From: a virus
Taxonomy: Duplodnaviria; Heunggongvirae; Uroviricota; Caudoviricetes
Strand: one strand, 5' to 3'
Virus record (IMG/VR): IMGVR_UViG_3300012346_000220
Span: 19,826 to 83,825 of that record
DNA length: 64,000 nucleotides
A program made the position numbers and the translations under genes. The notes beneath the pieces were generated by a model that was not told the DNA's origin, did no database searches, and saw nothing but the letters and a program-made list of their open reading frames with translations. Below, in pieces: positions 42,700 through 57,582 of this stretch (the first letter of the stretch is position 1; each line of letters begins with the position of its first letter).

Positions 42700-42713
42700 G
42701 TCATTCACACTTC

Positions 42714-42950
42714 TCATAGCCCCAGCCCCGTCAATGCTGCTTGCAGACCAGCCAGGCCGCCGACACGTTGGCCGTCGATGAATATCTGGGGCATCTGACG
42801 GGCTTCGGGGTGCATCTTCAGCATCAGGTTGAATTCGATGTCGTCGACTTCTTGATGGAGCTCGGAGTAGGCGAGGCGCTTGCTGGCCAGCAGGTTCTTG
42901 GCTGCCACGCAGTTGGGGCAGTTGGCCTTGGTGTAGATTGTGATATTCAT
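42714..42950 (-). CDS. Glutaredoxin-like (NrdH/Grx) protein
   Basis: Start ATG 42950 with an AAGGAG SD. CPNC active-site motif in MNITIYTKANCPNCVAAK. Confidence 0.7.
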   Translation of the reverse strand: MNITIYTKANCPNCVAAKNLLASKRLAYSELHQEVDDIEFNLMLKMHPEARQMPQIFIDGQRVGGLAGLQAALTGLGL

Positions 42951-43392
42951 GTGTTCTTCTCCTTCTGTGTGAACAAGTCGTTGGTTGTCCGGGCCATGTT
43001 CCATCCTGCCTTGAAGGCGTCATTGACTTCAAAGCCCACTTCTTTTTCGTAGTCGGCAACGGTGGGCCAAGCGTAGTCAATCCCCACCCATTGCCGCTGT
43101 GCTGCGGGTGGGGTGGTGTAGACAGGCACTGTGTGTTTTGCGGCGTACCCCTGCTCAAGCCGTGTTGGCCCGGCTTGCATCTTTCGCTTCCACGACTCGG
43201 TGATGACGTTGCAATAGTCATCTCCTTCTGGGTCTAGCCACGCCACAGGCTCCTGCACAGGTGCTGCAAGGGCTTTAAGTCCTGCCTCTACAAGTTCAGT
43301 GCGCTCGGCTTGCAGTGCTGGCGTGTGGAAAGTTGCCACAGCCAACAGCATCAACATGCGCTCCAACCTCTCGCGTTCAATTTCTATGCTCA
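42947..43392 (-). CDS. Hypothetical protein, paralog 1 (contains YTTPPAAQRQ encoded by the 31-bp repeat)
   Basis: Start ATG 43392 with an AAGGAG SD. High-GC copy. Confidence 0.45.
43091..43121. repeat. 31-bp exact direct repeat, copy 1 (TTGCCGCTGTGCTGCGGGTGGGGTGGTGTAG); copy 2 at 43739..43769
   Basis: Identical 31-mers read directly. They are embedded in otherwise diverged paralogous genes that flank the local GC drop. Confidence 0.9.
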
Positions 43393-43402
43393 TGGTGTTC
43401 TC

Positions 43403-43574
43403 CTTATTCATCATAAAGTGCAAAAACAACTCCGGAGGCCAAAAAGATACCCGAGAACGCAACAAACGCACGCCCAGCCACTCCCCATGTAGCCGTATTG
43501 AAATCAGCATTTACAAACGCACCTGCTAAATACATAAGCACAAGAGTGCCTAAAAATCCAATGATGCTTTTCAT
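43403..43574 (-). CDS. 56-aa two-TM membrane protein (not in ORF track)
   Basis: ATG 43574 with an AAGGAG SD. Reads MKSIIGFLGTLVLMYLAGAFVNADFNTATWGVAGRAFVAFSGIFLASGVVFALYDE. Confidence 0.35.
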
Positions 43575-43996
43575 GTGTTTTTCTCCTTGAGTTTGGCTTC
43601 GATGGCATAAGCAAACGCTTGCAGGTCTGCGTTTGTGATTTCGTGTTGAGGTAATCCGCTTGTTTCATCGCAAGCGTAAATTTCTTCGGTTGTCAGCCCA
43701 ACCCACGCACTCCTTCGATCCTTCGGATCTGGTGCTGCTTGCCGCTGTGCTGCGGGTGGGGTGGTGTAGTAAGCGGTTGGCAACTCGTTGTTGGGGCCTC
43801 CGGGTGCCCAAGGCGTGTAGCAAATGTTTACGCAACACTGTTCTTTATCCATGAAGCCGTGAAACGCTGGCTCCTGCATAGGTGCTGCAAGTGCTTGCTC
43901 CAGCTTGTCAATTGTGATCTGTTGCGCTCGTACAAGTGCAATTATTCGCTGAACTTCTGTTTTTAAGTATTCAGCTTCATTGGTGTGGATGTTCAT
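43571..43996 (-). CDS. Hypothetical protein, paralog 2 (contains YTTPPAAQRQ; low-GC copy)
   Basis: ATG 43996 with an AAGGAG SD. Shares the 31-bp identical core with 42947..43392. Confidence 0.45.
   Translation of the reverse strand: MNIHTNEAEYLKTEVQRIIALVRAQQITIDKLEQALAAPMQEPAFHGFMDKEQCCVNICYTPWAPGGPNNELPTAYYTTPPAAQRQAAPDPKDRRSAWVGLTTEEIYACDETSGLPQHEITNADLQAFAYAIEAKLKEKNT
43739..43769. repeat. 31-bp exact direct repeat, copy 2
   Basis: Same 31-mer as 43091..43121. Confidence 0.9.
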
Positions 43997-44043
43997 GTTT
44001 TCTCCTTAAAACTTTATTTTGCTTGCCTAACCTTACTTTTTGC

Positions 44044-44715
44044 TTACGCCTCTCGCTTTAATCGCCTTGTTTCTGCGTTGTAGTGCTTGGCAATTTCAAT
44101 CAAGCCTTCATGGGTGTACGGCACTTCGCCTTTGTGCGTTGTTTTTGGTGTCAAAAGTGCCTCCTCTACCGTCATTCCGCTTGCAATCCTACGAACAATT
44201 GTGGTGTTAGACAAATAGCCACCAGTCACGCGACTCCATTCGTTTGCAGTCAAAGTCAGGCCATCAAACTCAATTGCATAATTCCCCTTTATTGTGTGCA
44301 ATTCTGGGTAGTTCCTTCGTGTATTACACACTCGGCATAACGGGCGCAAATTGTCGGGGATGTTGTTTTGAGGGTTGTTGTCTTTGTGGTCAATGTGTAC
44401 CGTTTCCCATGTCTCTGGTTTTCCGCATAACTCGCACGAATGAAGCGAGTAGCCAATTCGGTCAAACACTACTTTGCGATGCTCTGAAACATACCCTTGT
44501 GTGTCAGCAAGTGGATGGCTTGGCAAATACAGGCGCTGATAACCACGCCCAGGCATGGTGACTCGTTCTTGTCTACTGTAACCAAGCTCCTGTTTTTTTA
44601 TGGTCAACTTTGTGTCAGTTGTACCGTTTCTCATAACCCTAAAATAGTGCTTTTGGCAAAGGCAAGCGGCTTTGTACCTTACCTGCCCATCACAGTTTTC
44701 AACTTTGCATTGCAT
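44044..44715 (-). CDS. HNH endonuclease with N-terminal Cys-rich region
   Basis: HIDHKDNNPQNNIPDNLRPLCRVCN HNH motif. Start taken at ATG 44715. Confidence 0.7.
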   Translation of the reverse strand: MQCKVENCDGQVRYKAACLCQKHYFRVMRNGTTDTKLTIKKQELGYSRQERVTMPGRGYQRLYLPSHPLADTQGYVSEHRKVVFDRIGYSLHSCELCGKPETWETVHIDHKDNNPQNNIPDNLRPLCRVCNTRRNYPELHTIKGNYAIEFDGLTLTANEWSRVTGGYLSNTTIVRRIASGMTVEEALLTPKTTHKGEVPYTHEGLIEIAKHYNAETRRLKREA

Positions 44716-44847
44716 TTCAATTCCCCAAAAGAAAACCCCCCGTGACACAGAGGATCAAGCTCCATGTGACAGGGGGTAGGCCGGGGAAGGCTTTTGTGTA
44801 TCTGCGCCTTGATCTCGCAACACAAAAACCCTCTTGCCGCAATTATA

Positions 44848-45405
44848 TCATTCTCTTGCTTTGTTTAAGCGTTTAGCTTCTGAGTTGTAATAACGTGCGA
44901 TTTCGACTAAGCCTTCTTTTGTGTATTTCCTTACCGTTTGGTCTGATTCAACGCGCTCTAATGCGTTTAGCCCTATACGCTCAATAAGTCCTTTACGGTA
45001 TTCAACGTGATTTCCAGCCAAAAATTGGTTGCAATGTTTACAACTTGCGTGACAATTTTCTTCAACAAACCTCATGTGAGGCGCACTTCCAACGCTTCGA
45101 TAATGTGACGCATCCGTCTGGTTTGACTCTGTGCTTGGTGGCTTTCCACAGCTTATGCAAGGCTTATCAGCATCCCTTGCCCTTACAAACGCATTAAACG
45201 CCGTTTGAGCGACTTTTACCAACTGAGGCTTAGTCCTCATGGCATCTAGCTTTTCTCGGGTCTTCTTGCGTTCTTCTTGGGCTTCCTTGGCTTTCTTTTT
45301 TTCTGTTGCTTGCCGTGATACTTCAAGGGCGCATAGGGGGGAGCAAACTTTCTGGAGTGGTCTGACAGGGGCGAACTCTGCCTTGCAAAATTTGCACTTT
45401 TTCAT
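44848..45405 (-). CDS. NinG/Rap-like recombination-associated protein (Cys-rich zinc-binding)
   Basis: CKFCKAEF...CSPLC and CISCG...CHASCKHCN clusters typical of the lambda NinG family. ATGA-coupled to the methyltransferase. Confidence 0.5.
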   Translation of the reverse strand: MKKCKFCKAEFAPVRPLQKVCSPLCALEVSRQATEKKKAKEAQEERKKTREKLDAMRTKPQLVKVAQTAFNAFVRARDADKPCISCGKPPSTESNQTDASHYRSVGSAPHMRFVEENCHASCKHCNQFLAGNHVEYRKGLIERIGLNALERVESDQTVRKYTKEGLVEIARYYNSEAKRLNKARE

Positions 45406-46151
45406 GCTGTCAACACTTTCCATGCTGTTGCTGCCACTGAAGGAATTTGTCCATTTCCAATGGCTCCAAGCGCGTCCATCCTCTGGGCCATATCATCAAT
45501 TCCTCTGAAAGTTCTGGAAAGTACTTCATCGGAATATCGCTCTCGAAATAGACGTAAGTTATCTTCTCGGTTGGCGCTGACTTTCCAAGGGAAATTCGTT
45601 TTAACCTTGAATTCTTGATCCACTTTTCTTTTCCGTGTTGCACTCCGTCCGATTTTGTTGGAGTCGGCCAGAATCCATACTCTGTCGCGTTTCGTGTTAA
45701 TTCCAATGGAGTCACCTCCCAACACTCCCCATCGCGCATCAAACCCCATTTCGGCCAGGTCTCCAAGCACTCGTCCAAGTCCTCTAGAAATGAGCATTGG
45801 TGAGTTTTCCACAAGGACGTGTTTGGGTTGTACTTCACGAATGATCCTTGCCATGTGGCCCCACATTCCTGATCGTTCCCCGTCAATTCCGGCTCCTTTT
45901 CCGGCAACTGAGATGTCCTGGCATGGAAACCCGCCCGAAACAACGTCAACAATTCCTCTCCACGGTCTTCCGTCAAAGGTTTGAACGTCATCCCAAATCG
46001 GGAAAGGCGGGAGAAGTCCGTCATTTTGTCGGGCGCACAATACGCTTGCTGGATAGGGTTCCCATTCAACGGCGCAGACTGTTCGCCATCCGAGAAGTTT
46101 TCCCCCAAGTATTCCTCCACCAGCGCCTGCGAATAAAGCCAACTCATTCAT
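45402..46151 (-). CDS. Compact DNA cytosine-5 methyltransferase
   Basis: Motif I LFAGAGGG, motif IV GGFPCQDIS, motif VI ENSP, motif VIII TKRDRVWILA, motif X-like GNGQIP. Strong SD. Confidence 0.8.
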   Translation of the reverse strand: MNELALFAGAGGGILGGKLLGWRTVCAVEWEPYPASVLCARQNDGLLPPFPIWDDVQTFDGRPWRGIVDVVSGGFPCQDISVAGKGAGIDGERSGMWGHMARIIREVQPKHVLVENSPMLISRGLGRVLGDLAEMGFDARWGVLGGDSIGINTKRDRVWILADSNKIGRSATRKRKVDQEFKVKTNFPWKVSANREDNLRLFRERYSDEVLSRTFRGIDDMAQRMDALGAIGNGQIPSVAATAWKVLTA

Positions 46152-46199
46152 ATCTCTCCTTAGAAAACTTCATTTTGCGGTTGTTTTCTGACTTGATTC

Positions 46200-46529
46200 T
46201 TACCGCATCGTCCGATCTTGGTTTCTGTTGTTCGCCTGTTCCGAGCGCCAAACCTCGACTCTCGCTTGTGCCATTGTCATCTCCCACTTTAGCTTTTCCT
46301 CTACCTCTATCGCGGCTTTTAAACCGTCTAGAAGCGCCAAATACTCGTCATGGCTATATGCGTATTGCTCACGGGCGTTTACCGTCTTCTCGGTGCTTTG
46401 GTTCATCAACAAAGCCTTTTTGGATTTTCTGAATTCTTCCAAATAGATCCGGTTAGCCTTGGCTTGGGCAAACTTACCCGCATTGGCAATTACGTAATCT
46501 ATCGCCTTGTTTGGGTCGTTCACGCCCAT
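46200..46529 (-). CDS. Hypothetical protein
   Basis: 109 aa. Confidence 0.35.
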   Translation of the reverse strand: MGVNDPNKAIDYVIANAGKFAQAKANRIYLEEFRKSKKALLMNQSTEKTVNAREQYAYSHDEYLALLDGLKAAIEVEEKLKWEMTMAQARVEVWRSEQANNRNQDRTMR

Positions 46530-46924
46530 AGTCTTCCACCGACAAACTTAGTCTTAGGCTCAAAAACAGGTTCGTTCTTTGCCTTCAATCTTTTTTGATA
46601 GGCCGCACTTCTCTCTGCCATTGTTTTTCTTTTGGGCTTCTCAGCATCAACACCCCCGCCAAGGCTGTAAATCGGGCGTTGGCTGCGTCCTAATTCATCT
46701 TTGTCCCAATCGCATATGTGCACCACGTTAGCATCTTTAAGGGTCTTCATTAGTCCCTGTAAGGTGTCGTAGTGCATGCCAGTTGCTTCTACCAGTTGGT
46801 ATTTGGTCATTGGGGCAGTCAACAGTGCCTTCAGAAACAAAGTGATGTTGGAGTGCTTACGGATTGAGTTGATCTTTCGGCCTTTTTTGCTTCCAGGGGT
46901 GAAGTTAGTCATTTGATTTGCCAC
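46520..46924 (-). CDS. Winged-helix DNA-binding protein
   Basis: Core MTKYQLVEATGMHYDTLQGLMKTLKDANVV. Confidence 0.45.
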   Translation of the reverse strand: MANQMTNFTPGSKKGRKINSIRKHSNITLFLKALLTAPMTKYQLVEATGMHYDTLQGLMKTLKDANVVHICDWDKDELGRSQRPIYSLGGGVDAEKPKRKTMAERSAAYQKRLKAKNEPVFEPKTKFVGGRLWA

Positions 46925-47102
46925 CTTTCTCTTGTTCTTTCAATAACTTGATGCGCTCTGCCACAGCTACACCAAGTCCTTTGTAGTACCCGGATTCGTG
47001 CTGTTCCAACTCGCGAGTCCATCTCCGCATCTCGTCTATCCATGCTGGCATCATGGCAAATCTTGCTATGTGGCTCACCATGTGTTCTAAGTGATTGTTC
47101 AT
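46905..47102 (-). CDS. Hypothetical protein
   Basis: 65 aa. Confidence 0.3.
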   Translation of the reverse strand: MNNHLEHMVSHIARFAMMPAWIDEMRRWTRELEQHESGYYKGLGVAVAERIKLLKEQEKGGKSND

Positions 47103-47126
47103 TCATGTTATTTTGTTGGTTGTTGC

Positions 47127-47495
47127 TTACGATTGGCTGACACCTTTGAAATAAAGGCGACTTGTTGATTTGACTTTGTTGTATGGGTCATCTTTTGGGC
47201 TTGGATAGCTACTGGCCGCCACAATTGAAGCACCTGAAGAAATGCACTTCTCATACAAATGATCGGCCCTGTCTTGGTTGTAGCTTTCAATCATCACCGT
47301 CATGCCAACAACAAAACGCAAATCAATATCTGAAATCTTGTCTTTGTGTACCGTGATTCGTGGCAACTCTCCCCATTTCAGCCAATCTGTATCAAATTCA
47401 AAGTCGTACAGACAAACGCTTGCAGGTTTAATTCCCTGCCTTCTAAGGTCTATCAATTCTTTTGCGCCTTTCATTGATACACCCCATGCGGCCAT
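47127..47495 (-). CDS. Hypothetical protein
   Basis: 122 aa. Confidence 0.35.
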   Translation of the reverse strand: MAAWGVSMKGAKELIDLRRQGIKPASVCLYDFEFDTDWLKWGELPRITVHKDKISDIDLRFVVGMTVMIESYNQDRADHLYEKCISSGASIVAASSYPSPKDDPYNKVKSTSRLYFKGVSQS

Positions 47496-48466
47496 GCTTT
47501 GTAATACTCCATCAATTCGGCTGACTTATGGCCCTTCAACTGTGTCGATGCTTTGTCAAAGTAAAGACCAATTGTTTGCTCTCCGCTCTTTGACCCGCTG
47601 TAATGGCGTTGTTTAATGCACCGGATAAAGCTGTCTGGTTCATCTCGCTTTTCAGCCATATCACCTTTGACTTCGACTTCCATCTCTTTCAGTTTGTTTC
47701 GCCAAACAACAAAAGCAGAATCAGCAATGTCTGTGATTGACGATGATCCCTTGATGTCGCTTTTGTCTGGTGTCGCGCCTGACTTTTCCAACTTCTTTGT
47801 GTGGTGGACAAGGTGAACATGGCAACCCGTGTCTTTAGCAATGTCAAAAATGCTTGAAACAAAGTCCTTTTCGCCGTTGTAGTTGTCCGTGCCACTCACC
47901 ACCTTTTGCAGGTTGTCAATGATGAAATGCTGCACTCCAAAAGTGTCAATGCTGTATCTCATAGCACCCAAAACAGAGTTTGCAGTCACATCGCCCAATT
48001 TGTGAAACAACCACATATTTTTTGAAAAACCAATCATCTCCTCTGCTGTTTCGTCCAACAAATCAATTTCGGCATTGGTCAGCTGAATATCCTCGTCTCC
48101 AAAGCAAACATGGCTGTAAAGTCTCAGCATCCTAGAAAACGTCTCTCCGGCGGTCATTTCCAACGATGCAAGGCACAGTTTTTGTTGTTGTCCAAGAAGG
48201 GAAAGAATAACTTGCATCAACACCAAAGTCTTTCCGCTACTGTTCTCACCAGCCCAGATCGTCAACTCACCAGGCCGAAAGTTGAACAAAGACCGAGTTT
48301 TCTCCCAAGGCAAGTAAATTCTGTTTGATGTGTCCTTGTTTCGGTATGAGTCTTTAAGTGTTTGCAAAAACTCAGAGGAATGAACAATCGTTTGTTTGTG
48401 TTCCGTCTCTTTAAGGTAGGCAGCAAAGTCAATGTCGTCAGGTAGATAGTTCATTTTCAAATCCAA
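47471..48466 (-). CDS. DnaB-like replicative helicase (RecA-fold C-terminal domain)
   Basis: Walker A GENSSGKT, Walker B-like HFIIDNLQ, and a HVHLVHHTKK segment. Confidence 0.6.
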   Translation of the reverse strand: MDLKMNYLPDDIDFAAYLKETEHKQTIVHSSEFLQTLKDSYRNKDTSNRIYLPWEKTRSLFNFRPGELTIWAGENSSGKTLVLMQVILSLLGQQQKLCLASLEMTAGETFSRMLRLYSHVCFGDEDIQLTNAEIDLLDETAEEMIGFSKNMWLFHKLGDVTANSVLGAMRYSIDTFGVQHFIIDNLQKVVSGTDNYNGEKDFVSSIFDIAKDTGCHVHLVHHTKKLEKSGATPDKSDIKGSSSITDIADSAFVVWRNKLKEMEVEVKGDMAEKRDEPDSFIRCIKQRHYSGSKSGEQTIGLYFDKASTQLKGHKSAELMEYYKAWPHGVYQ

Positions 48467-49092
48467 GTTTGTTGTGTTTGTTTTTCAGGAATTGCCAATT
48501 GGTCTTTCCATCTTTCACCGTTAAGCCAAGTTGCAGGGTTTGGGATGTATTGACCATCATCCTTAAGCCAAGAAGACTGTTTGCTTTGTTTTTCAATTGC
48601 ATCAAGCATTACCTGCAAAAGATCAGAATCAACTTTTCTTTTTTGAAATGCACGCATTGCAGCGTCTTTGCCAACCTTTTTTGGATATGCCTTCCAGAAA
48701 ATCTCAAAAAAATACATCTTTTGTTTTTCTGTCTCTTCCTCTTCTCTCCTCTTCTCTGGGATAGCATCTGTGTGCATGTTGCTAGCATCTGCTGGCGTGT
48801 TGCTAGCATGAATAAAAAAGCCCTTATCAATCAAAGACTTACGCCCAATCTGAATGTCCTTCAAAGAAAATCGAAGCCTAAACGTTAATTCCTCATCGCT
48901 CGCATCAAACTCCCCGCCATTGCCCTTACTTTCGCTTGCTAGCAACCAAAGTAAAGGAGCTAGCGCCTTGCTAGCAATTGGCAATGCAGCAAAAGCTCGG
49001 TCATTTAGCATGTCGCGGTGCAGCTTAATCCATGGTGGGCAACGATCTTTGTAATGTTGAAAAGCGCCCCAGTTTTTTGGTTTTAAGATCAT
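48457..49092 (-). CDS. Replication initiator / replisome organiser (N-terminal phage replisome-organiser-like domain)
   Basis: N-terminus WGAFQHYKDRCPPWIKLHRDMLNDRAFAALPIASKALAPLLWLLASE. Sits next to the helicase. Confidence 0.55.
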   Translation of the reverse strand: MILKPKNWGAFQHYKDRCPPWIKLHRDMLNDRAFAALPIASKALAPLLWLLASESKGNGGEFDASDEELTFRLRFSLKDIQIGRKSLIDKGFFIHASNTPADASNMHTDAIPEKRREEEETEKQKMYFFEIFWKAYPKKVGKDAAMRAFQKRKVDSDLLQVMLDAIEKQSKQSSWLKDDGQYIPNPATWLNGERWKDQLAIPEKQTQQTWI

Positions 49093-49274
49093 TGGAATCT
49101 TGCCTTTTCAATAGCCATGTAAGCATTAAACTCAACAGAGTCAAATCCGTATTTCATGGCAACTTCGCATGAACCACAAATAGAAATACTTGATTCAACG
49201 TCTCCTTCTTTAAGACGTTTTTTGATTTCTTTAATTGCCGCATACAGCAAAGAAATTTTTTCGTGTGATTGCAT
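49089..49274 (-). CDS. Hypothetical small protein
   Basis: Start at ATG 49274. A possible 39-aa micro-ORF lies upstream at 49276..49395. Confidence 0.3.
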   Translation of the reverse strand: MQSHEKISLLYAAIKEIKKRLKEGDVESSISICGSCEVAMKYGFDSVEFNAYMAIEKARFQ

Positions 49275-49404
49275 CTCATACCCCCAATCGTTTAGCAATA
49301 GCCTTCAATGCGGCCTCAATCTGTTCTGGTGTTGCATCAGGGTGCAAGTGCAACCAAGTTGACTTTTCGCTCTCGTAGCGTTGTTGCTTATCCATATCAA
49401 AACT

Positions 49405-49455
49405 CCAAAAGAAAAACCCCTGAAGGCCGGTAGTACAAGTACCAACTTTCAGGGG
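49405..49455 (-). terminator. Intrinsic terminator on minus strand
   Basis: Minus-strand RNA forms CCCCUGAA...UUCAGGGG followed by UUUUUCUUUU. Lies about 75 nt after the stop of 49529..49726. Confidence 0.6.
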
Positions 49456-49528
49456 TTCGCCGTGGGTAACGGCTTAGATGTATCAGCGTCTTGTACACGC
49501 CACATCTAAACCGTCAGCCCGTATTTTA

Positions 49529-49726
49529 TCAAACTTTTGGAGGTTGTCCAAAATATATTTTTTGACCATCAGGCCGTGTGCGCTTTGTAACCGTCCATCC
49601 GTGTGTGTATTGCATCCTTGAAATACTCGAATGGGGACTTGTAGTTGGTAAAGCACGGGCAACTTCAGCAGCCGTTACGCCATGTTTGCGCTTGAGTAGG
49701 ATAGCTAGTTTGTCAGAGTTGGTCAT
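49529..49726 (-). CDS. Small basic putative DNA-binding protein
   Basis: 65 aa. LAILLKRKHGVTAAEVARAL, an HTH-like segment. Confidence 0.4.
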   Translation of the reverse strand: MTNSDKLAILLKRKHGVTAAEVARALPTTSPHSSISRMQYTHGWTVTKRTRPDGQKIYFGQPPKV

Positions 49727-49980
49727 TTTGCGCTCCTTGCTTGGATCATTGCATCTGCCATCTTGTAAGCATCTTCGGCAGTCCGTTGTTCATATCTGTT
49801 TACCCCAATAAGGCCAACGTATTTATCGGAGCTAAGAATTGCTTGCATCGCCTTGGCTGCAAAGTAGTCTCGCAGGGTCATGCCGTGAAAATGAATTTTG
49901 TCTAAATCGCCAACTACAGGCATGGCTGCCCCACCTGTTTTTACATCACTCATCTCTATCTCCTTGGTTAAAAGTTTCAT
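49723..49980 (-). CDS. Hypothetical protein (first gene of the minus-strand early operon)
   Basis: 85 aa. ATGA overlap with the next gene. Confidence 0.4.
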   Translation of the reverse strand: MKLLTKEIEMSDVKTGGAAMPVVGDLDKIHFHGMTLRDYFAAKAMQAILSSDKYVGLIGVNRYEQRTAEDAYKMADAMIQARSAK

Positions 49981-50296
49981 TGTGAGGATGTTTCCTTACT
50001 TTACGCTGACAGCGTTTATATGCAAGTTAGGAAAGTTAGCGCAATTCGATAACTTTGTGTATTAGGGTTTGTCTGGATAAAAAATATCTTGTCTGTCAGT
50101 TTCGCGTAAGTTTCAGCCCTCAGAATTGAGGCCATACACAGCGATAAGCAGTTGCTGTTAAGCGAGTCAAAGGAACCTAGGCCGGAGACTAATTAACCTG
50201 CTTATCGGTGTGTATACACCCCGCTAGTCTGACTCCTTGACAAGCGGTTTCCCCAGGTCATGTGATCTGGGGTTTTTTAAGGACAAAGGAAAAATC
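49981..50296. promoter_or_regulatory. Divergent early control region: direct repeats AAGTTAG x2 and TTGTCTG x2, 10-bp inverted repeat (50142..50151 / 50198..50207), perfect palindrome GTGTATACAC (50210..50219), TTGACA at 50236
   Basis: 316-bp AT-richer ORF-free gap between divergently oriented gene blocks. Elements read directly. Confidence 0.55.
50251..50278 (+). terminator. Intrinsic terminator/attenuator hairpin 19 nt upstream of first + strand start codon
   Basis: CCCCAGGUCA-UG-UGAUCUGGGG (9-10 bp stem incl. one G.U) followed by UUUUUU, then AAGGA SD and ATG 50297. Confidence 0.6.
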
Positions 50297-50551
50297 ATGT
50301 ACTCAGATCAAAACAAAGCTGCTGACAAATACGACTTCTATTTGTTGGTCAACATGGGTGGCGAAGTGGACTGTGACTGCCATTTCAACATTGAGTCAGA
50401 CGGTGAAGGCTCTTGGAATGTCTCAGAATTTGAGCTGTTCTTTCTTGGCGAAAACGTGACTCGCATGGTTTGCTCTGAAGCAGTTGAAGAACAAATCTAC
50501 GATCAGGCAAACGAAGTTGAAGCAGCAATCCGTGAACAATTGGAGCGATGA
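50297..50551 (+). CDS. Hypothetical acidic protein (Cys-containing)
   Basis: ATG 50297 preceded by AAGGAAAAATC. The ORF-track start at 50237 is a TTG. Confidence 0.45.
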   Translation: MYSDQNKAADKYDFYLLVNMGGEVDCDCHFNIESDGEGSWNVSEFELFFLGENVTRMVCSEAVEEQIYDQANEVEAAIREQLER

Positions 50552-50646
50552 AATGAGTAACGATTGGAAAAACAGAATTTTGGACTGCTTGTTGGCTACG
50601 GCCATCGGCATTGGTTTGGCTGCTGTTATTGTTTACGGGTGGTGAT

Positions 50647-50856
50647 ATGAAAACAACGATTGAAATGGCCCGTGAGGCTGGCTTAGAGGGAATGACAGGA
50701 CATCCCGCACTTCAACGCCTTGTTGCCATTGTCCGTGCTGACGAACGTGCAAAACGACACCTTCCAGACGTACTAACCCAAGAATACGGTGACAGTGCTG
50801 ACTATGTAGAAGGCTGGAATGAATGCCGTGAAGTTATGGCGGGGATGATGAAATGA
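50647..50856 (+). CDS. Hypothetical protein (VRADER paralog 1)
   Basis: ATG 50647. A 30-aa TM micro-ORF lies at 50553..50645 just upstream. Confidence 0.4.
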   Translation: MKTTIEMAREAGLEGMTGHPALQRLVAIVRADERAKRHLPDVLTQEYGDSADYVEGWNECREVMAGMMK

Positions 50857-51080
50857 GAGACACGATAGATATGGCCTGTGAGTCAGATTTGCTGACCCAC
50901 ATCCCGTTCCGTAGCGACACCGAGGTTTCGGTTGCTCTCAAAGCCTTTGAAGCCCTTGTTCGTGCTGATGAGCGAAGCGTAGAGCGTGAGGCGTTGCTTG
51001 AGATTGTTTACAGCTACTGCAACAATCTTTCATGGAACGATGACTTTCAAGAAGACATCCGAGCAAGGGGGAACACATGA
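50853..51080 (+). CDS. Hypothetical protein (VRADER paralog 2)
   Basis: Shares AL..(L/F)VA(I/L)VRADER with the previous gene. Confidence 0.4.
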   Translation: MRDTIDMACESDLLTHIPFRSDTEVSVALKAFEALVRADERSVEREALLEIVYSYCNNLSWNDDFQEDIRARGNT

Positions 51081-51225
51081 TAGTTGTCTACCGCCTCTAC
51101 CGTTTCAAGCGCCGCTGTGGTTTGCCTCGCATCCATGCGCTAAAACAAGCAATTCAAGCAGCTTTGCGCCCGTAAGCGCCTAGTAAGCTTCAAAGAACAA
51201 AATACAGCTTTCAACAGGAGAAATC

Positions 51226-51801
51226 ATGCAAGTTTACAAAGCAATCAACGCTGTCCAGGCTGAGTTATCAGTCCAAGGCATTGCCAAAAATCAACGTAAC
51301 GGCCAAGGCGCTGGCTACAACTTTCGAGGAATTGATGACGTTTTGAACGCTCTTTCTCCTTTGCTGTCTAAGCACGGTCTTTGCATTTTGCCCCGTGTCT
51401 TGGCCCGTGAGTGCGTTGAGCGTCAATCTAAGAACGGTGGTGCATTGTTCTACATCACAGTAGAAGTCGAGTTTGATTTTGTATCGTCCGAGGATGGCAC
51501 AAAACACACCGTCAAGACGTTTGGCGAGGCAATGGATAGCGGCGATAAGGCAACCAACAAAGCCATGTCAGCGGCTTATAAATATGCTTGCTTTCAGGCG
51601 TTCAGCATTCCAACCGAAGCCAAAGAAGACGCTGATTATCAGACACACGAAGTCAAGCCAACACTGACAAACGCCCGTTTTGCCCAAGCTGTCGAACGTA
51701 TCAAAGAGGGAAAGTACACCACGGACAAGCTGCGCGAAACTTTCTCTTTGACTCAAGAACAAGAAGACGCATTGGTTGGAGCAATTGCAAATGCTGAATA
51801 A
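51226..51801 (+). CDS. ERF-family single-strand annealing protein
   Basis: AKNQRNGQGAGYNFRGIDDVLNALSPLLSKHGL and KAMSAAYKYACFQAFSIP resemble the ERF superfamily core. Confidence 0.55.
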   Translation: MQVYKAINAVQAELSVQGIAKNQRNGQGAGYNFRGIDDVLNALSPLLSKHGLCILPRVLARECVERQSKNGGALFYITVEVEFDFVSSEDGTKHTVKTFGEAMDSGDKATNKAMSAAYKYACFQAFSIPTEAKEDADYQTHEVKPTLTNARFAQAVERIKEGKYTTDKLRETFSLTQEQEDALVGAIANAE

Positions 51802-52432
51802 ACCACTGCTTTTCCGTGCGTCCAGCTTGGGCGACATCATGACCGACCCAAAAGGCAAAGACGAGGTTTTGTCTGTCGGTGCTAAGACCGCCATTACAAA
51901 GATGGCTAAAGAGGCTGTTTACGGCTTTGACGAGCGCGTTTCATCCAAGTACATGACCAAAGGCATTGAGGTTGAAGATCAGTCAATTTCCTTGCTCAAC
52001 TCTGTTTTGTTCACCGACTATTCCAAAAACACAGAGCGCAAAACAAATGATTGGGTAACAGGCGAGTGCGACATTTTTACAGGGTCAAAGATCATCGACA
52101 TTAAATCGTCTTGGTCGTTGTCCACGTTTCCCGTGTTGTCAGAACAGGGCGAGGATAAGGGCTATATGTGGCAACTCGCCGCCTATATGATGCTTTGGGA
52201 TGTTGACCATTCCCAGATCGCTTATTGCCTTGTTTCCACGCCTGAAAATCTGATTGGCTATGAAGATCCACAGCTTCATAATGTTGACCACATTAACCCA
52301 GAATTACGGGTTACGCTGGTGAGTTACGAACGCGACAAGGCCAAAGAATCCAAGATCAAAGAAAAGACTGAAGCCGCTCGTGACTACTACAAACAAGTAA
52401 TTGAACGAATTGCAAACGAACACACTTTCTAG
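51791..52432 (+). CDS. PD-(D/E)XK recombination exonuclease
   Basis: GECDIF...IIDIKSS...YMWQLAAYM has a D...(D/E)xK arrangement. Overlaps the end of the ERF gene. Confidence 0.5.
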   Translation: MLNKPLLFRASSLGDIMTDPKGKDEVLSVGAKTAITKMAKEAVYGFDERVSSKYMTKGIEVEDQSISLLNSVLFTDYSKNTERKTNDWVTGECDIFTGSKIIDIKSSWSLSTFPVLSEQGEDKGYMWQLAAYMMLWDVDHSQIAYCLVSTPENLIGYEDPQLHNVDHINPELRVTLVSYERDKAKESKIKEKTEAARDYYKQVIERIANEHTF

Positions 52433-52486
52433 TAAGAACCGTGTAAGCAAACACCAATAAACTCAAGTTTTAACCAAGGAACCAAA

Positions 52487-52780
52487 ATGGCCCACAAAAC
52501 CCACGATCTCGCTGTCAAAGTTGGCAGCTACACAAACCAACAAGGCGAAACCAAAGGACGTTATCAGAATGTCGGTGCGTTGATGCAAGGCGACAACGGC
52601 CAGTTCATCATGCTTGCCAAATGGTTCAATCCAGCAGGTGTGACAGATGACCGAGGCGGCGAATCAATCCTGATTTCAGTGTTTGAGCCGAAAGAAAAGG
52701 GCGAAGCACCACGCCAAGCAAGGCCACAGCGCCAAGCCTCAGCATCCAGCGGATTCGATGACATGGAAGCGCCCTTCTAA
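52487..52780 (+). CDS. Small SSB-like protein with acidic C-terminal tail (..GFDDMEAPF)
   Basis: The C-terminal tail resembles the SSB-Ct interaction motif. The body is short (97 aa). Confidence 0.35.
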   Translation: MAHKTHDLAVKVGSYTNQQGETKGRYQNVGALMQGDNGQFIMLAKWFNPAGVTDDRGGESILISVFEPKEKGEAPRQARPQRQASASSGFDDMEAPF

Positions 52781-52782
52781 CC

Positions 52783-53133
52783 ATGAAACTCACAACACCA
52801 ACTAGCGGCCCAGGTTCACAAATGGGCACTAAATCCCGCGCAATTCTTGAATGCTTGCGAAAAAACGGTAAGTTAAACCGCCTTGACCTTGAAATGAAAC
52901 TCAATATCGGGCCTTTGAATACCACAATCAACCGAATGTATCAATTGGGCTATGTCAAGAATCCAATTGGTATTGCAGGGATGTACGAAATCACTCAGGC
53001 AGGACGTGTTGCACTAGGTGAAGCACTTGAGATTAAATCGGCAGGTGTGGAACGTATTTGCAACGGTTCTAGCCGTGAGATCTACATTCCTGGCATCCAT
53101 TCTGTCGCCCGAGTAGGAATTGCACGGGTATGA
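52783..53133 (+). CDS. Winged-helix transcriptional regulator
   Basis: AILECLRKNGKLNRLDLEMKLNIGPLNTTINRMYQLGYV. Confidence 0.45.
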   Translation: MKLTTPTSGPGSQMGTKSRAILECLRKNGKLNRLDLEMKLNIGPLNTTINRMYQLGYVKNPIGIAGMYEITQAGRVALGEALEIKSAGVERICNGSSREIYIPGIHSVARVGIARV

Positions 53134-53227
53134 ACGCACTTAAAGTCATTGCATACGGCTTGTTGACTTCATTTTTAGGATTGTTGTTGATTTGCTTTAT
53201 CTCTTACACAGTACACTGGATTGCATC

Positions 53228-53413
53228 ATGACTACAGACGAAAAAGAAGCAATCGCCGCTGAAAAGGTCATTCACTCTGCCTACCATCATGTGATGAGTT
53301 ATGCAAAGAATGAAGACATTGAAGCCGCTACCATTGCGCTATTATGGGCAGCATTCGAAACTGAAGCTAAACGATTCGGTTTATCGGATTGGCGCGGATT
53401 AAAATTGAATTGA
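53228..53413 (+). CDS. Hypothetical small protein
   Basis: ATG 53228. ATGA overlap with the next gene. Confidence 0.3.
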   Translation: MTTDEKEAIAAEKVIHSAYHHVMSYAKNEDIEAATIALLWAAFETEAKRFGLSDWRGLKLN

Positions 53414-53664
53414 TGGTTAAGCAAGGTGACGCATGGCCCATAGCCATGAAAGTCGTGCAGGACTGGGGATTCTCGGTTGCCATCAACGGGTCTAAACGGC
53501 TGCTTGTCGGCCTAGTCGGACTCATAGGCGATGTAAAGCGTTTGGAGCCTATGCCAAAGCTGGATTTCGTAACCAGCACTATCACGCATGAGCCTTTTTG
53601 CGGAGCAACCAAGCATTGCAGGGGTGCAATGATGCAAACGGGTTCAGCCGTGATGGTCGCTTAG
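53413..53664 (+). CDS. Hypothetical small protein
   Basis: 83 aa. Confidence 0.3.
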   Translation: MVKQGDAWPIAMKVVQDWGFSVAINGSKRLLVGLVGLIGDVKRLEPMPKLDFVTSTITHEPFCGATKHCRGAMMQTGSAVMVA

Positions 53665-53760
53665 GTCTTAGCCGCCTAGGTATTCTTTAACTTCCCTGTG
53701 TAGTCACGGGGCAGGCGTGAAACTTTGCAAACAACAAGCCCTGCTGTATGGGCAAGGCCA

Positions 53761-54132
53761 TCAACCTAATTCGTAATGCGGGCCATCGTAAAAGCTCTTG
53801 AAGTCACCACCCCAACGGATGTCGATTTCCAGCTCTTTTGCGGCCTGTTTAACGAACGGAGCAAGGTGATCGTATGCAGCCTTGTCCCATGTCACTTTCC
53901 CGTCTTTAAGCGCCCATAGATCAACTGCATGGCCCGTTAGGTGCTTAGAGTTGAGAGTCTTGCTCTTACCCTCTGCAAACAGCTTGGCCTGGCGCTCTTT
54001 GGTGCGTAGACCCTCGCCCACAGTAAAGTCTGTGTCGGTCAATTCAATTGCACGTTTGACCACTTTAACGAGGTCTTCATGTACGCCTTCAAGGGTTTTA
54101 AGCGACTTTGCGCCAAGAACAAATTTAGTCAT
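53761..54132 (-). CDS. Endolysin, peptidase M15 (L-Ala-D-Glu / D-Ala-D-Ala carboxypeptidase-like)
   Basis: SKHLTGHAVDL (the S.H..G.A.D zinc-binding motif) plus a downstream W.GD... motif. Confidence 0.75.
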   Translation of the reverse strand: MTKFVLGAKSLKTLEGVHEDLVKVVKRAIELTDTDFTVGEGLRTKERQAKLFAEGKSKTLNSKHLTGHAVDLWALKDGKVTWDKAAYDHLAPFVKQAAKELEIDIRWGGDFKSFYDGPHYELG

Positions 54133-54605
54133 TTCAAACCCTTAATCATGGCGTCTGTCTTGTCTTTACTCGATTTGCTAGAACCGAAAAAGAACTGCAA
54201 GATCGTGGCAACAATCGTCCCCAAAAGAAAACCCAAAATCGTATCGGCAAAGCGAACCGAAGTTTCAGGAATGGTCAGGAACGTGATTGCACAAATGTAG
54301 ACCACGGCAAAGATCGACCAAAACGCCGCCAAGTAATAGATAAACCGTTTGCTGAAAACGTCATCCTGCGCCAATGCAATCTCTTGCATGTGCCGTGCAC
54401 CATCACGGTCTTTTTGCTCTAACTCAGCCCATTTGAATTCATGCTCACGAAGGGCAGACAAGTCCTCTACAGGCATTTCAGGTTTTAGCTCAATGCCCGT
54501 TTTCTCGCTCACATAGTCAACACCTTTATCCACCACCACCTGGGCAAGTTTGGGTAGATTATTTGTCACCAGTGTGCTGATTATTCCCGCTAGAAGTGGA
54601 GCCAT
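54129..54605 (-). CDS. Membrane lysis protein (holin/spanin-class) with two C-terminal TM helices
   Basis: GAGG SD. Helices YYLAAFWSIFAVVYICAITFL and ILGFLLGTIVATILQFFFG. Confidence 0.45.
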   Translation of the reverse strand: MAPLLAGIISTLVTNNLPKLAQVVVDKGVDYVSEKTGIELKPEMPVEDLSALREHEFKWAELEQKDRDGARHMQEIALAQDDVFSKRFIYYLAAFWSIFAVVYICAITFLTIPETSVRFADTILGFLLGTIVATILQFFFGSSKSSKDKTDAMIKGLK

Positions 54606-54792
54606 GATTGACCTCTATCTTGATGTTAAACACGCCGATTGTGGTTAGGATCAGTTGACCAACCCACTTTACAAACTCAACTTTCGCAGTCGCTCCACCT
54701 ATACCATCCGCATCTTTTACCTCATCGGGTAAATCTACCGGAGTGGCACAGGCAGTAACCAAACAACAAATGATAATTAGACGCTTGACCAA
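54559..54792 (-). CDS. Small lipoprotein (o-spanin-like), overlapping start of downstream lysis gene
   Basis: TTG start. Lipobox LVTAC after a hydrophobic signal. Its 3' end overlaps the 54129..54605 gene in another frame. Confidence 0.4.
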   Translation of the reverse strand: MVKRLIIICCLVTACATPVDLPDEVKDADGIGGATAKVEFVKWVGQLILTTIGVFNIKIEVNHGSTSSGNNQHTGDK

Positions 54793-55085
54793 GGTGTGCC
54801 AGAAGCCTTTTTAGGGGCTTTCTGTTCAGCAATGTTTGTAGCCAATGAAGCATCTACAGCAGCAACACCTTCAGTGCCCAATGAAGCCTTGACCCACTCA
54901 ATAACCTTTGCTTCGGTCAATGAGTCGTAGGGGATGAGGTTCATACCATCGGTCTTTGTAAAACTGACAGTTGAATAAGTAGAGGCTGAATGTTCACCGT
55001 CTACTTGACTCGCGGTAAAATGCACAAAGAAAATAAATTTATCGGCTGTGTTGTAGTCGGTTTGAGTGATTTTCCAATTAGCCAT
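54777..55085 (-). CDS. Hypothetical protein in lysis cassette
   Basis: Start ATG 55085 with an AAGGA SD. Confidence 0.35.
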   Translation of the reverse strand: MANWKITQTDYNTADKFIFFVHFTASQVDGEHSASTYSTVSFTKTDGMNLIPYDSLTEAKVIEWVKASLGTEGVAAVDASLATNIAEQKAPKKASGTPWSSV

Positions 55086-55093
55086 GTTCATCC

Positions 55094-55348
55094 TTAAAAG
55101 TGAGAGCAATAAAACCCGAGAGCGCCACCAGCCGAAGTGACCAGAGCATCCCATACGTCAGGAGTGTGATTTTCTTTGTTCAAAGCGTCATAGAGTTCTT
55201 TCAAGAACCCTGCAATTACCGATAAAGCAAAGGCGTACTGAGGGCCAGTGAACGGCAAGAACACAGCGAACAGAATGGCCCCGGCAATAAAGTGTGCAAC
55301 TTTATCCGCTGAAATGTTGTTTAACCTTTTTAAGGTTTGCTCAATCAT
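55094..55348 (-). CDS. Holin-like small membrane protein
   Basis: 84 aa with 2-3 hydrophobic helices (HFIAGAILFAVFLPF, AFALSVIAGFL). Confidence 0.45.
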   Translation of the reverse strand: MIEQTLKRLNNISADKVAHFIAGAILFAVFLPFTGPQYAFALSVIAGFLKELYDALNKENHTPDVWDALVTSAGGALGFYCSHF

Positions 55349-55416
55349 AAATACGGCCCTCGTCGCGGTTCAGTTGTTTTGTGAGTTCAGCAATCATGGT
55401 GTGGCTTTCGCATCGG

Positions 55417-57582
55417 TTATGTCACAACAGCCGCATCCCAGCCGACACCCGTAAGTGAAAGCCAGTTTGTGCAGTTGGCCGTGCCGCCAGAAACCTCATT
55501 GACCTTCACATCTCCGTCAGTGCCAATCGTCACTGGAATTGCAATCTGCCCAGAACCTCCACGCCCTTGAGCAAGGCATCGTTTTACCTCTGAAGGCCAT
55601 GCCCACTGTGGCAACGTGCAAAGAATGTTGCTGGTGCCAGGTAAAACTAAGCCCTTCAAGTTGACCCGCCCCCCGGATAGGTCAACGCCAAAAATGTCGT
55701 TGCCACTAATCTGCGTCCAGCCGTTCTTTAATGCAGGGGCCAATCCGCCGTTTGTGGATGTGTAAGTTGGCTTGGAACTCCCAGCCTGGTCGCGCCAAAG
55801 CGATCCAAGTAGCAGCTTTGGAGTTCCAGTAATTCTGAACACACCATTGGTTACGTTTTGCGCTTTGAGGCAGGCGATATTTAAGTAAGCCTGACTTCCT
55901 ACCTCAATGGCAACGTCGCTCATGTTCACAGCTTCAACATTGCCCAACATCGTCTGACTAACGCCGTAAACCGAATTAACAACACCCTTAGCGTGATTGC
56001 GAAGCACGACGTTGGCACATTGAAATCGATCAACACGCAGCGTCCCACCAAGATTCAAGTTAATGCCTATGTTGGTGCCGCCAGTTACGCCATAACCATC
56101 CGTTTTGATAGAGCCAATCTGCACGTCAGAAAGGCTGAAACTACCAGCAACACCGACGCCAATCTGATAGCCGTATGCCTCAACAGAACCGATTTGAATT
56201 CGGTCAATAACATTGCCATCTGGGTTAAACTGCAAGCCATGCCCAGTAGTGGCAATAGCATGAGGTGACCAGCCAGATGGCCCAGATGCGTCAACAAAGA
56301 TTTTGCCTATTTGAATATCCACAGCCTGTGCTGTTGCTTGTGCGTCAGACTTGATGATTACGCCTTCACCGGCATTGCAAAAAGAAGTGAACTGTTCTGC
56401 TCGAACATTCTTGCATTTAATGACGATGCCGTGAGTACCATAGCAACCTAACATTTCGCCGGTGCAGACCACCCCCGAATATCCCTCACCAACGATCATT
56501 GCGTGCGTCAATGCGGACGGCGACATACAAAGACCAGCAATGTTGTGCAGCCGCACACCGTAGCGAATCTGCGCCGCCGCCTTGGCCACGTTGTCAGGAT
56601 AAGTACAAAGCAGGCCCTCCCCGGACAATCCGGGTGATGCGGCGCCACCGAAATAGGTGTTCATCACCGTGTGGCCGCTATCAACACCCAAGTCGCGGAA
56701 CTCGATGTTGTTGGCGTAGGCAATGATCTGCCCTTGGACGACAGTGCCGCCTTCCAGCTTTTTACAGTCGTTGGAAAGCTGGGGCATCTTCTCGCCAACA
56801 TATGACACATTGGCTTTTGAAAAATACACGGCATTCGCCGGGACACCAAATCCATATACGTGGTTGTTTGGCTTGTAGGTTCGGTTTGCCAACTTCACAA
56901 TGCCTCCTGTTGAAGGCAGCGCATTTGTCGCGTAGTTCAGACTGTTCTGAACGTCACCCCACCAATCTGGGCGAACCGGCAAACCGTTGGCAATCGTGAC
57001 TTGGCTCGTTGCCGAGAACATCTGGTTCAGCGTGTCAACAATAGGCGCGGTAATTGTTGTTGGCGTACCGATGTGCATCACCCCCGGAATCAACAAAGAA
57101 ACCTTTGCGGCCACGGCGGCTGCATTGGCGTTAAAAAGAGCAGTTGCATCGTTGGTGACACCATCAAGCGTTGCCCCAAAATCTTGGACGCTTACGCTCT
57201 CACGCATCTTATCCTGCGCCGTGCGATCAACCGCGCCAGTGCCTGCTTGCTGAAAGCCAACAAGTGCAGCGCCTTTTCCATTTATCGTGCTTGCAAGATC
57301 TGCTCTCAAATCCAAAGCATCAACACTTGCCCACTTTCCCGCTGCAAGGTCTGTCGCAAATGTTCCGGCTGTGTGACCAATCACACATACATAAGCCTCA
57401 CCGCTTTCAAGAATGTAATCACGGGGTTCGTATTGAGTGCCTGTTGTCCAATTGCCTCGGTTTTGCATCAATGAGGCAATGTCTTGGAATCGCTCATTGA
57501 TCTTAATGAAAGCGTCTCGCAGCTTGTCGCCTTGCCCATCATCGGGGGCAGTGGATACGTAAACTGGTGTTTGAATTGTCAT
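55417..57582 (-). CDS. Tail fibre / tailspike protein (beta-helix-like)
   Basis: 721 aa, Gly/Asn/Thr-rich with repeated G..G..N segments. Lies downstream of the host-specificity gene. Confidence 0.55.
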   Translation of the reverse strand: MTIQTPVYVSTAPDDGQGDKLRDAFIKINERFQDIASLMQNRGNWTTGTQYEPRDYILESGEAYVCVIGHTAGTFATDLAAGKWASVDALDLRADLASTINGKGAALVGFQQAGTGAVDRTAQDKMRESVSVQDFGATLDGVTNDATALFNANAAAVAAKVSLLIPGVMHIGTPTTITAPIVDTLNQMFSATSQVTIANGLPVRPDWWGDVQNSLNYATNALPSTGGIVKLANRTYKPNNHVYGFGVPANAVYFSKANVSYVGEKMPQLSNDCKKLEGGTVVQGQIIAYANNIEFRDLGVDSGHTVMNTYFGGAASPGLSGEGLLCTYPDNVAKAAAQIRYGVRLHNIAGLCMSPSALTHAMIVGEGYSGVVCTGEMLGCYGTHGIVIKCKNVRAEQFTSFCNAGEGVIIKSDAQATAQAVDIQIGKIFVDASGPSGWSPHAIATTGHGLQFNPDGNVIDRIQIGSVEAYGYQIGVGVAGSFSLSDVQIGSIKTDGYGVTGGTNIGINLNLGGTLRVDRFQCANVVLRNHAKGVVNSVYGVSQTMLGNVEAVNMSDVAIEVGSQAYLNIACLKAQNVTNGVFRITGTPKLLLGSLWRDQAGSSKPTYTSTNGGLAPALKNGWTQISGNDIFGVDLSGGRVNLKGLVLPGTSNILCTLPQWAWPSEVKRCLAQGRGGSGQIAIPVTIGTDGDVKVNEVSGGTANCTNWLSLTGVGWDAAVVT

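Follow-up and report, generated by a model that had tools for sequence, protein, structure and literature searches.

Within a 64,000-nucleotide stretch of viral DNA (hereafter the window; IMG/VR record IMGVR_UViG_3300012346_000220), the 316-bp divergent intergenic region of a lambdoid-like phage (49981-50296) carries a structured RNA element on the + strand, whose 3' end is an intrinsic terminator placed just ahead of the first gene in a rightward operon encoding ERF and an exonuclease. As judged from sequence, the element is a previously uncatalogued, portable RNA family of about 155 nt that bears its own terminator and an allelic apical domain. Covariation over 11 variants shows that the RNA structure is under selection. 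We infer a dual output for this cassette, at a probability of roughly 0.45: it would release a functional short RNA and at the same time throttle the ERF/exonuclease operon. Terminated phage leaders are familiar; in the present case the structure is solid and the modularity unusual, the function being what we propose from them.

A covarying leader RNA that ends in a terminator

On folding, the segment 50100-50296 was found to be structured beyond its shuffles (z = -4.15) and the 149-nt core still more so (z = -6.4). Eleven distinct copies of the element were compared (the window, L099, L090, L030, L082, L094, L101, L096, L104, L098 and L111), which had been found via the 84-aa protein encoded directly 3' of it, via DNA patterns and via homologues of the 84-aa protein in a large assembly collection; all variants fold alike, into an irregular long hairpin, a short hairpin and the terminator. 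A covariance model (R1) was built from five copies and all 11 were aligned to it (alignment A11). In A11, whose fitting to the structure inflates the pairing and covariation figures somewhat, 96.9% of the cells hold standard pairs and both sides have changed in 19 of 34 pairs, with a covariation score of 0.339 against 0.117 in shuffles and 0 of 500 shuffles reaching the observed value. When the partners were slid by 1-3 columns as a control, pairing dropped to 36-43% with 0-4 covarying pairs, and an unfitted MAFFT/RNAalifold run had already given 15 covarying pairs. A sequence-only reading of this DNA had described a structured leader ending in an intrinsic terminator directly before the first + strand gene of the ERF/exonuclease operon, with folding and covariation as a suggested check; covariation supports this description, the leader being a structured + strand RNA.

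The 5' part of the fold is a long hairpin (50134-50215) made of a basal stem, P1, and an apical domain (50152-50197, of the allele called W). P1 joins 50134-50151 to 50198-50215 through 7 bp, a conserved G.G mismatch (50141/50208) and a further 10 bp; an inverted-repeat search gives its arms as 18 nt each and 94% complementary. The 10-bp inverted repeat reported earlier is hence present but understated in size, since it belongs to this 18-position stem. P1 (helix 1) counts 17 pairs in A11, 12 of them changed on both sides, with 97% of its cells paired. A single-stranded linker, ACACCCC (50216-50222), seen in the alignments and in the folds, leads to hairpin 3 (50221-50247); its CACCCC is invariant in 11/11 copies, the final two C (50221-50222) being at the same time the first bases of the hairpin-3 stem. 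Hairpin 3 consists of the stems 50221-50225/50243-50247 and 50227-50229/50239-50241 (helices 2 and 3, in which both partners have changed in 3 pairs) and of the loop UGACUCCUU (50230-50238), which is C/U-rich, keeps an anti-Shine-Dalgarno-like CCU(U) motif in every variant and is complementary, through this motif, to the Shine-Dalgarno (SD) motifs 3' of the terminator. Upstream of the core another hairpin, hairpin 1 (CCUCA-GAAU-UGAGG, 50118-50131), folds as well and is lineage-specific: at its site a different hairpin, GGGC-UUCG-GCCC, is found in L090, and none in L094, L096 and the cassette-free leaders. Two longer-range contacts were rejected, namely a helix pairing the 5' UCUUGUCUGUC with the SD region, which was predicted in the first three sequences and is lost in L094 and L096, and a kissing pair of the W apical GUCAAAGGA with the hairpin-3 loop, which fits the window but shows no covariation in L094. 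Overall, the copies have diverged in P1, in the stems of hairpin 3 and in the SD region, through changes that are compensatory or free; little or no variation is seen in 22 nt of apical W, in the linker CACCCC and in the terminator hairpin including its flanks.

The terminator itself (50251-50278, + strand), identified from fold, ensemble and covariation, has a 9-10 bp stem, the loop AUGU and U6. Its stem pairs 50251-50259 with 50264-50272 in 9 pairs, including 6 G-C, and is followed by T6 at 50273-50278. The hairpin alone folds with -16 kcal/mol and its pair probability in the ensemble is 0.98-1.0; a G+C-rich hairpin followed by a U-run on the transcribed strand is what a predicted intrinsic terminator should present. 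A 3-kb scan gave 4 terminator-like sites against 3.8 expected from shuffles, i.e. no excess, and since this count equals that of the shuffles, the significance of the terminator rests on conservation and covariation and not on the scan. Indeed, 100% of the cells of the terminator helix (helix 4) are paired, 4/9 pairs have changed on both sides, and the compensatory changes are independent in L101 and L111; the hairpin with its flanks is identical in 9/11 variants, though P1 and hairpin 3 have diverged. By folding energy, pair probability and covariation, the strong hairpin with a U6 tail previously read from the letters is therefore real. The T-run is separated from the ATG at 50297 by 18 nt, in which two SD-like AAGGA motifs are found where a single SD had been mentioned, so that the translation initiation region (50279-50299, + strand) comprises SD1 (50279-50283), SD2 (50286-50290) and the start codon (50297-50299). 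SD1 is part of the cassette; SD2 is common to the cassette-free leaders, whose end reads ...CAACAACTGGAGAAATCATG.

G.U pairs occur only in the + strand reading, one of them, in the terminator, being invariant, and the + strand fold is 1-10.7 kcal/mol stabler than that of the - strand in 9/9 variants tested (z -3.1 to -7.2). The selected object is therefore the RNA made from the + strand. The same asymmetry of the strands weighs against a site acting at the DNA level, such as an operator palindrome, an origin or a recombination hairpin, which we consider very unlikely: inverted repeats and a 10-bp palindrome within a divergent control region would suit such a site, but the cassette also occurs between genes, away from any promoter, and the palindrome is neither conserved nor above chance. 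The latter, GTGTATACAC (50210-50219), is unique in the window and arises where the P1 3' arm meets the linker; at one mismatch 0.82 chance matches are expected, at least one being present in 60/100 shuffles, and relatives that keep the rest of the structure have GGTGGTGTCACC or GGTGGTAACACC in its place. Hence the palindrome does exist where it was first noticed, as an unconserved by-product of the long stem, and the role of repressor operator suggested for it falls away with its single, chance-level and unconserved occurrence. An inverted pair of the motif CTGTCAG-N5-CGTAAG appears to be the better operator candidate. A pattern search finds its right copy, CTGTCAG-TTTCG-CGTAAG, at 50093-50110 on the + strand, and its left copy, CTGTCAG-CGTAA-AGTAAG, on the - strand at 49995-50012 (inverted repeat I2); the two have 0 and 1 mismatch to the pattern, of which a weaker match lies at 47126-47143. 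Each 18-nt copy stands 2 nt downstream of the -10-like hexamer of one divergent promoter, which for the left copy is TATAAA (50020-50015, - strand), so that the left copy forms part of the divergent promoter region and lies outside the RNA core. In relatives, whether or not they have the core, the intergenic region is bordered by equivalent TGTMAG-N5-CGTMAG pairs.

An insertable cassette with an exchangeable tip

The insertable core (about 154 nt, 50134-50287, + strand) was delimited against sister leaders of the form ...GAATTGAGGCT-CAACAACT-GGAGAAATCATG. Five distinct sister leaders are without it (L092/93, L105, L106/109, L107/108 and L110); they keep the promoter-proximal part and the final GGAGAAATCATG, and the about 154 nt between them are missing. 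Given that sister phages have the same leader without this stretch, the core is a discrete indel, or cassette. A single copy is present in the 64-kb window. In the window, L030, L094, L096 and others it directly follows the early promoter region. In L082 it lies 3' of an inserted HNH endonuclease gene, which sits between the early promoter and the cassette, and in L090 between two + strand genes, preceded by the small GGGC-UUCG-GCCC hairpin. Free-standing HNH endonuclease genes are found at differing points of the early region among the relatives (L082, 3607-4076; L092, 3103-3594; L110, 2706-3185; window, 44044-44715 on the - strand). Across the copies at least four unrelated small genes follow the cassette, the junction being always the same SD-ATG. 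The cassette is thus portable and absent from sister phages, and it is not always promoter-proximal; the sequence-only reading had missed both points, as well as the unrelated alleles at the tip of the long hairpin.

No gene was found to co-occur specifically with the cassette in the related phages. The 65-aa winged-helix protein encoded leftward of the intergenic region is 82-100% identical to that of the window in phages with the cassette (L030, L082, L094/95, L099, L101) and 44-50% identical in the cassette-free L092, L105, L106, L107 and L110, a split which could reflect linkage to the cassette or functional coupling with it; L102 and L103 have the cassette and no 65-aa winged-helix gene within 1 kb. 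Further searches returned little. BLAST of the region against 50,697 phage records, in near and distant modes, gave no match, and a genome_contigs search gave distant matches only (Curvibacter, Providencia, Flavobacterium). Anchored DNA patterns, with one and two anchors, had L082 and L083 as their only true matches in viral, metagenome and genome collections, two metagenome matches to GGTGTGTATACACCCCGC being unrelated palindromes. In addition, 80 loci reached through the exonuclease and the 85-aa protein encoded across the intergenic region showed neither the element nor an analogous leader terminator: relatives picked out by their flanking genes have no terminator at this place, and the element does not belong to the neighbourhood in general.

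At the tip of the long hairpin three unrelated alleles were distinguished: W and L, of 46 nt each, L being that of L030 and L082, and one of 45 nt in L101. In the W allele the 22 nt GCGAGTCAAAGGAACCTAGGCC are invariant in 8/8 copies, on three diverged scaffolds. When L is aligned with W, 22 of 60 columns are identical, which is chance level for the replaced stretch including the upper stem, and in L101 the replacement is limited to the apical ~27 nt; the hairpin remains continuous across these differing allele breakpoints. The window and L030 differ in the apical domain, while their flanks are about 96% and the downstream protein 99% identical, and such near-identical flanks around a differing domain indicate replacement and not drift. 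On this pattern one may picture the cassette as a scaffold whose conserved stem, linker and terminator display an exchangeable 45-46-nt specificity module, swapped between near-identical phages, with a target set by the allele; it would be a new kind of regulatory or anti-defence RNA of the phage. We regard this extension as doubtful. If it were true, the allele might be directed at a defence system, at a competing phage or at some host factor, and, taken with a second promoter-hairpin-terminator family on the - strand, it would point to control centred on RNA in a group of lambdoid-like phages as yet uncharacterised.

Proposed release and read-through, and competing accounts

According to the dual-output reading, transcription from the rightward early promoter, or from the upstream gene in L082 and L090, would mostly stop at the terminator, at 50273-50279. 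The stable, structured RNA so released would measure about 180-190 nt when counted from the promoter, the core alone making up about 150 nt; for L082 and L090 the product would be the upstream mRNA with the cassette as its 3' end. The invariant apical domain, the linker and the C/U-rich loop would be the working surfaces of this RNA. Since the gap of 18 nt has no space for a promoter 3' of the terminator, the + strand genes are contiguous and there is no conserved internal promoter, the operon must be transcribed through the terminator, and the ERF/exonuclease genes would be expressed by read-through polymerases only. TTGACA at 50237-50242 was rejected as an internal promoter, because the hexamer is not conserved and its -10 partner, TGTGAT, has no A at position 2. 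The cassette would contain no internal RNA switch, and regulation of read-through would have to come from a trans factor.

A classical attenuator or riboswitch, in which a ligand, a tRNA or a ribosome toggles between terminator and antiterminator, is for its part hardly credible. The leader position and the high degree of structure are what one would expect of it, but no alternative pairing was found for either terminator arm, the 5' arm being free in the nascent RNA of both alleles tested. Likewise, the element encodes no leader peptide and no ORF of at least 20 aa that has a plausible start, no Rfam family matches it at either the gathering or the E-value threshold, and the likeliest aptamer domain is replaced by unrelated sequence in L030/L082 and L101. 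Regarding the earlier choice between a terminated short RNA and a conditional attenuator, the short RNA is the likeliest predicted product, and a folding-switch attenuator is not supported, the terminator 5' arm being unpaired and without a competitor.

The preference for a dual output with a functional RNA comes from the pattern of conservation. Amid stems that change in a compensatory manner, the apical W, CACCCC and the terminator are conserved in sequence, which argues for a working RNA product and not for a bare stop signal; such segments in a portable and dispensable unit favour the dual-output reading. A base-pairing small RNA (sRNA) should be a discrete transcript with a 3' end of its own and a conserved unpaired seed; what the sequence shows is a 3' end signal, the invariant unpaired CACCCC and the CCU(U) loop. 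Furthermore, the 3' part runs hairpin, UUU, terminator hairpin, U6, a layout resembling what we take to be the 3' modules of Hfq-binding sRNAs. A precedent for a dual output is given by the Stx phages, where, according to PMC7547250, the constitutively terminated PR' transcript is a regulatory sRNA, StxS.

Several points weigh against this reading. The promoter is weak by consensus and its start site rests on the following features: the candidate rightward early promoter (50078-50110, + strand) has as its -10 AAAAAT (50080-50085) or TATCTT (50085-50090), followed by the right operator-like copy; the A-rich -10-like block is conserved in position, with an upstream TG in several relatives (TGAAAAAAT, TGCAAAAT); and a sigma-70 consensus scan of the + strand at this place gave no match. 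Rightward transcription would start at about 50090-50098, a position that is uncertain. As to targets, the window outside the element holds no exact complementarity of at least 12 nt to its own apical allele, and the best duplex with the 20 kb of the phage, at -39.7 kcal/mol, falls inside the range that the minima of shuffled controls span (-34 to -43); within these two tests the RNA is thus not an antisense regulator of its own phage. The cassette is moreover dispensable, since sister phages are without it. The abutment of the SD and its complementarity to the hairpin-3 loop would suit a purely cis-acting device equally well, and on our analysis two further promoter-hairpin-terminator units favour an antitermination programme with the short RNA as a by-product.

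In the first of these alternatives the RNA would act on its own read-through transcripts, the long hairpin as an RNase III-type site and the hairpin-3 loop by pairing with the SD, and so set both stability and translation of the downstream mRNA. Such a device would account for the 18-position stem with its conserved internal mismatch, maintained through compensatory change, for the cassette always adjoining an SD, and for a C/U-rich loop that in every variant is complementary over 5-7 nt to SD1 or SD2. One change is matched between L094 and L101, which we read as a G-to-U change in the loop answered by U-to-A in SD2. The leader of lambda N, where an RNase III hairpin lies between nutL and the N ribosome-binding site, also counts in its favour. 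However, complementarity is weak evidence here, since anti-SD-like loops match any SD, and in L090/L091 SD1 is mutated while the loop has no matching change. Furthermore, the strong terminator and the invariant apical domain would be left unexplained, and we consider this alternative rather improbable.

A second structured RNA family, unrelated to the cassette, was observed on the - strand. Each unit opens with a strong or extended -10 promoter, on which follow a covarying hairpin of 19 bp and a long, terminator-like hairpin with its U-run; the SD and the ATG of the next gene come immediately afterwards. One copy (49387-49544) follows the 65-aa winged-helix gene and precedes the replication genes; another (44710-44856) has NinG on one side and the HNH/late genes on the other, an arrangement like that of lambda PR'-6S-tR'. 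Their promoters are TGGACA-16-TGATAAAAT at 49550-49523 and an extended -10, TGATATAAT, at about 44849-44841. The 19-bp hairpin has a conserved AUA bulge and 14/36 pairs covary; no match of this family was found in Rfam. Beyond the window the family was detected in 10 distinct phage contigs, from 15 loci of which some overlap in the same phage, namely L002 (4969-5118), L005 (4476-4621), L010 (4651-4790 and 11483-11619), L041 (1335-1486), L092 (1718-1870), L094 (755-896), L105, L107, L110 and L030/L083. To judge from these predicted units, the phage group clearly punctuates its operons with terminators.

This second family adds weight to the other alternative, in which the cassette would be a factor-dependent antitermination gate only. 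The terminator would then resemble lambda tL1/tR1 or tR' and hold back delayed-early recombination genes, the short RNA being a by-product and the upstream hairpins either a nut-like recognition site for an antiterminator of phage or host, or a cis-acting put-like RNA. We hold such a gate to be possible, if on balance unlikely. The layout is lambdoid (RepO-like, DnaB-like and NinG leftward; ERF/exonuclease rightward), the operon has no other promoter, the two - strand units precede the replication genes and the HNH/late genes so that terminator-punctuated operons are the rule here, and the sequence of the terminator hairpin is invariant beyond structural need, as for a site recognised by a protein. 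On the other side, no N-, Q- or other antiterminator family was found (Pfam/PHROG) among 30 proteins of 43571-63247, many of them orphans, in a 35-kb phage that lies partly outside the window. On reading the leader no boxA-like sequence (CGCTCTTA-like) was found, hairpin 1 is not conserved, and no gene co-occurs with the cassette that could be its specific partner. Moreover, sister phages run the same operon without any terminator, and unrelated apical alleles beside identical genes, as in the window and L030, are hard to square with one cognate RNA-binding protein.

Whichever account holds, a structured RNA family without Rfam match and with strong covariation is added to the small set of phage leader/terminator RNAs. 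Its properties are unusual, as it behaves like an insertable cassette that brings its own terminator to the ribosome-binding site of the following gene, and the tip of its main hairpin is swapped between unrelated alleles. If the short RNA works in its own right, it is a new sRNA of phages whose specificity can be swapped, and an antitermination gate would mean an unrecognised antiterminator in a phage group where homology finds none; either way the compact ~155-nt unit is suited to termination and read-through assays.

Setting in the phage and comparison with known systems

Leftward from the intergenic region, on the - strand, are encoded the 85-aa protein, the 65-aa winged-helix protein, a RepO-like initiator, a DnaB-like helicase, a methyltransferase and NinG; rightward, on the + strand, small ORFs are followed by ERF, the exonuclease and a winged-helix protein, the genes being contiguous from 50297 to about 53664. 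The first gene 3' of the cassette (50297-50551, + strand) encodes the 84-aa protein, which is acidic, without family match and has 29 homologues. Directly 3' of it lies an ORF for a conserved hydrophobic 30-aa peptide, MSNDWKNRILDCLLATAIGIGLAAVIVYGW (50554-50645, + strand), present in most relatives. An unannotated arginine-rich ORF of 32 aa, MIVVYRLYRFKRRCGLPRIHALKQAIQAALRP (51077-51175, + strand), overlaps the stop of the preceding gene (ATGA) just 5' of ERF; it has no PHROG match and is kept in all related phages examined at 48-100% identity. It was rejected as a cassette-specific partner, since cassette-free phages carry it too. A conserved block before ERF (51089-51225) was also rejected as another RNA, because most of it, up to 51175, is this ORF; the other ~50 nt reach to the ERF start codon. 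No tRNA was found in the region.

A sequence 100% identical to that of the window is present on the Logan contig L089 (35,354 bp), which ends at about window position 43914. The G+C content falls from about 57% (1-43000) to about 46% (44000-64000), with the shift at about 42000-46000. From the end of L089 and the fall in G+C near 43914, the phage of interest is probably confined to the right part of the window. The contig end, near the HNH gene, is possibly a cos end, and the left 44 kb of the window may be another phage or an assembly join; an ORF (43571-43996) straddles the putative junction.

In every membership test that was run, for Rfam, nut, c4/CI and ToxI, the cassette falls outside the known class. 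With Rfam 15 no gathering-level match was obtained across the whole window, and the best matches by E-value in 49700-50600 owe their score to the terminator and reach 19-21 bits where the thresholds are about 50. The best of these weak matches is the Betaproteobacteria toxic sRNA RF02278 (20.8 bits against a gathering score of 50), of which the cassette is not a member. With Hfq-type sRNAs having C/U-rich seeds it shares a 3' hairpin, a U-rich spacer, a terminator and poly-U, as well as the conserved, unpaired C-rich CACCCC and CUCCUU, but it is much longer, has a large 5' hairpin and no target was found in its own phage. Type III toxin-antitoxin systems (ToxI-like) differ, as there are no tandem repeats and the downstream genes are small, mutually unrelated and without family. 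The immunity RNAs P4 CI and P1-P7 c4 are alike in being derived from a leader, with a segment that differs between related phages. In contrast to these, the cassette does not match Rfam C4, target boxes complementary to it were found neither in its operon nor in the phage, and two alleles stand before downstream genes of 99% identity, so that no covarying target is found there.

Among the systems of read-through, the put RNA of HK022 is likewise a structured stem-loop phage RNA in an early operon, just downstream of the early promoter and upstream of terminators (PMC9378689). It is about 70 nt long, with two long stem-loops and an RNA triplex and without a terminator, and it gives factor-independent read-through (PMC9378689), whereas the cassette combines a single long hairpin, whose tip is exchangeable, with a short one and with its own terminator; no sequence relation to put was detected. 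The lambda N-nut system also has an early operon of leftward type, with recombination genes behind a terminator, and a small then a large hairpin before the first ribosome-binding site. Unlike it, the cassette leader is without a boxA consensus and its small hairpin is not conserved; an arginine-rich N homologue was not identified, the conserved 32-aa arginine-rich ORF being present in cassette-free phages too.

Finally, in its proposed operation the cassette comes nearest to the lambdoid promoter-proximal terminated transcripts (lambda PR'-6S RNA-tR' and StxS) and to leader RNAs of early operons (nut, put). From the former it differs in fronting the ERF/exonuclease recombination operon and not late genes, in an RNA that is highly structured with covarying helices, in having no Q-like gene found nearby, and in being insertable, absent from sister phages and also present between genes. 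Common to both are a promoter, for the cassette a candidate one, with a strong intrinsic terminator within about 200 nt, and directly behind it an operon that needs read-through. Both also have a discrete short RNA, which in the case of the cassette is predicted and which in the Stx phages has a regulatory role of its own (PMC7547250).

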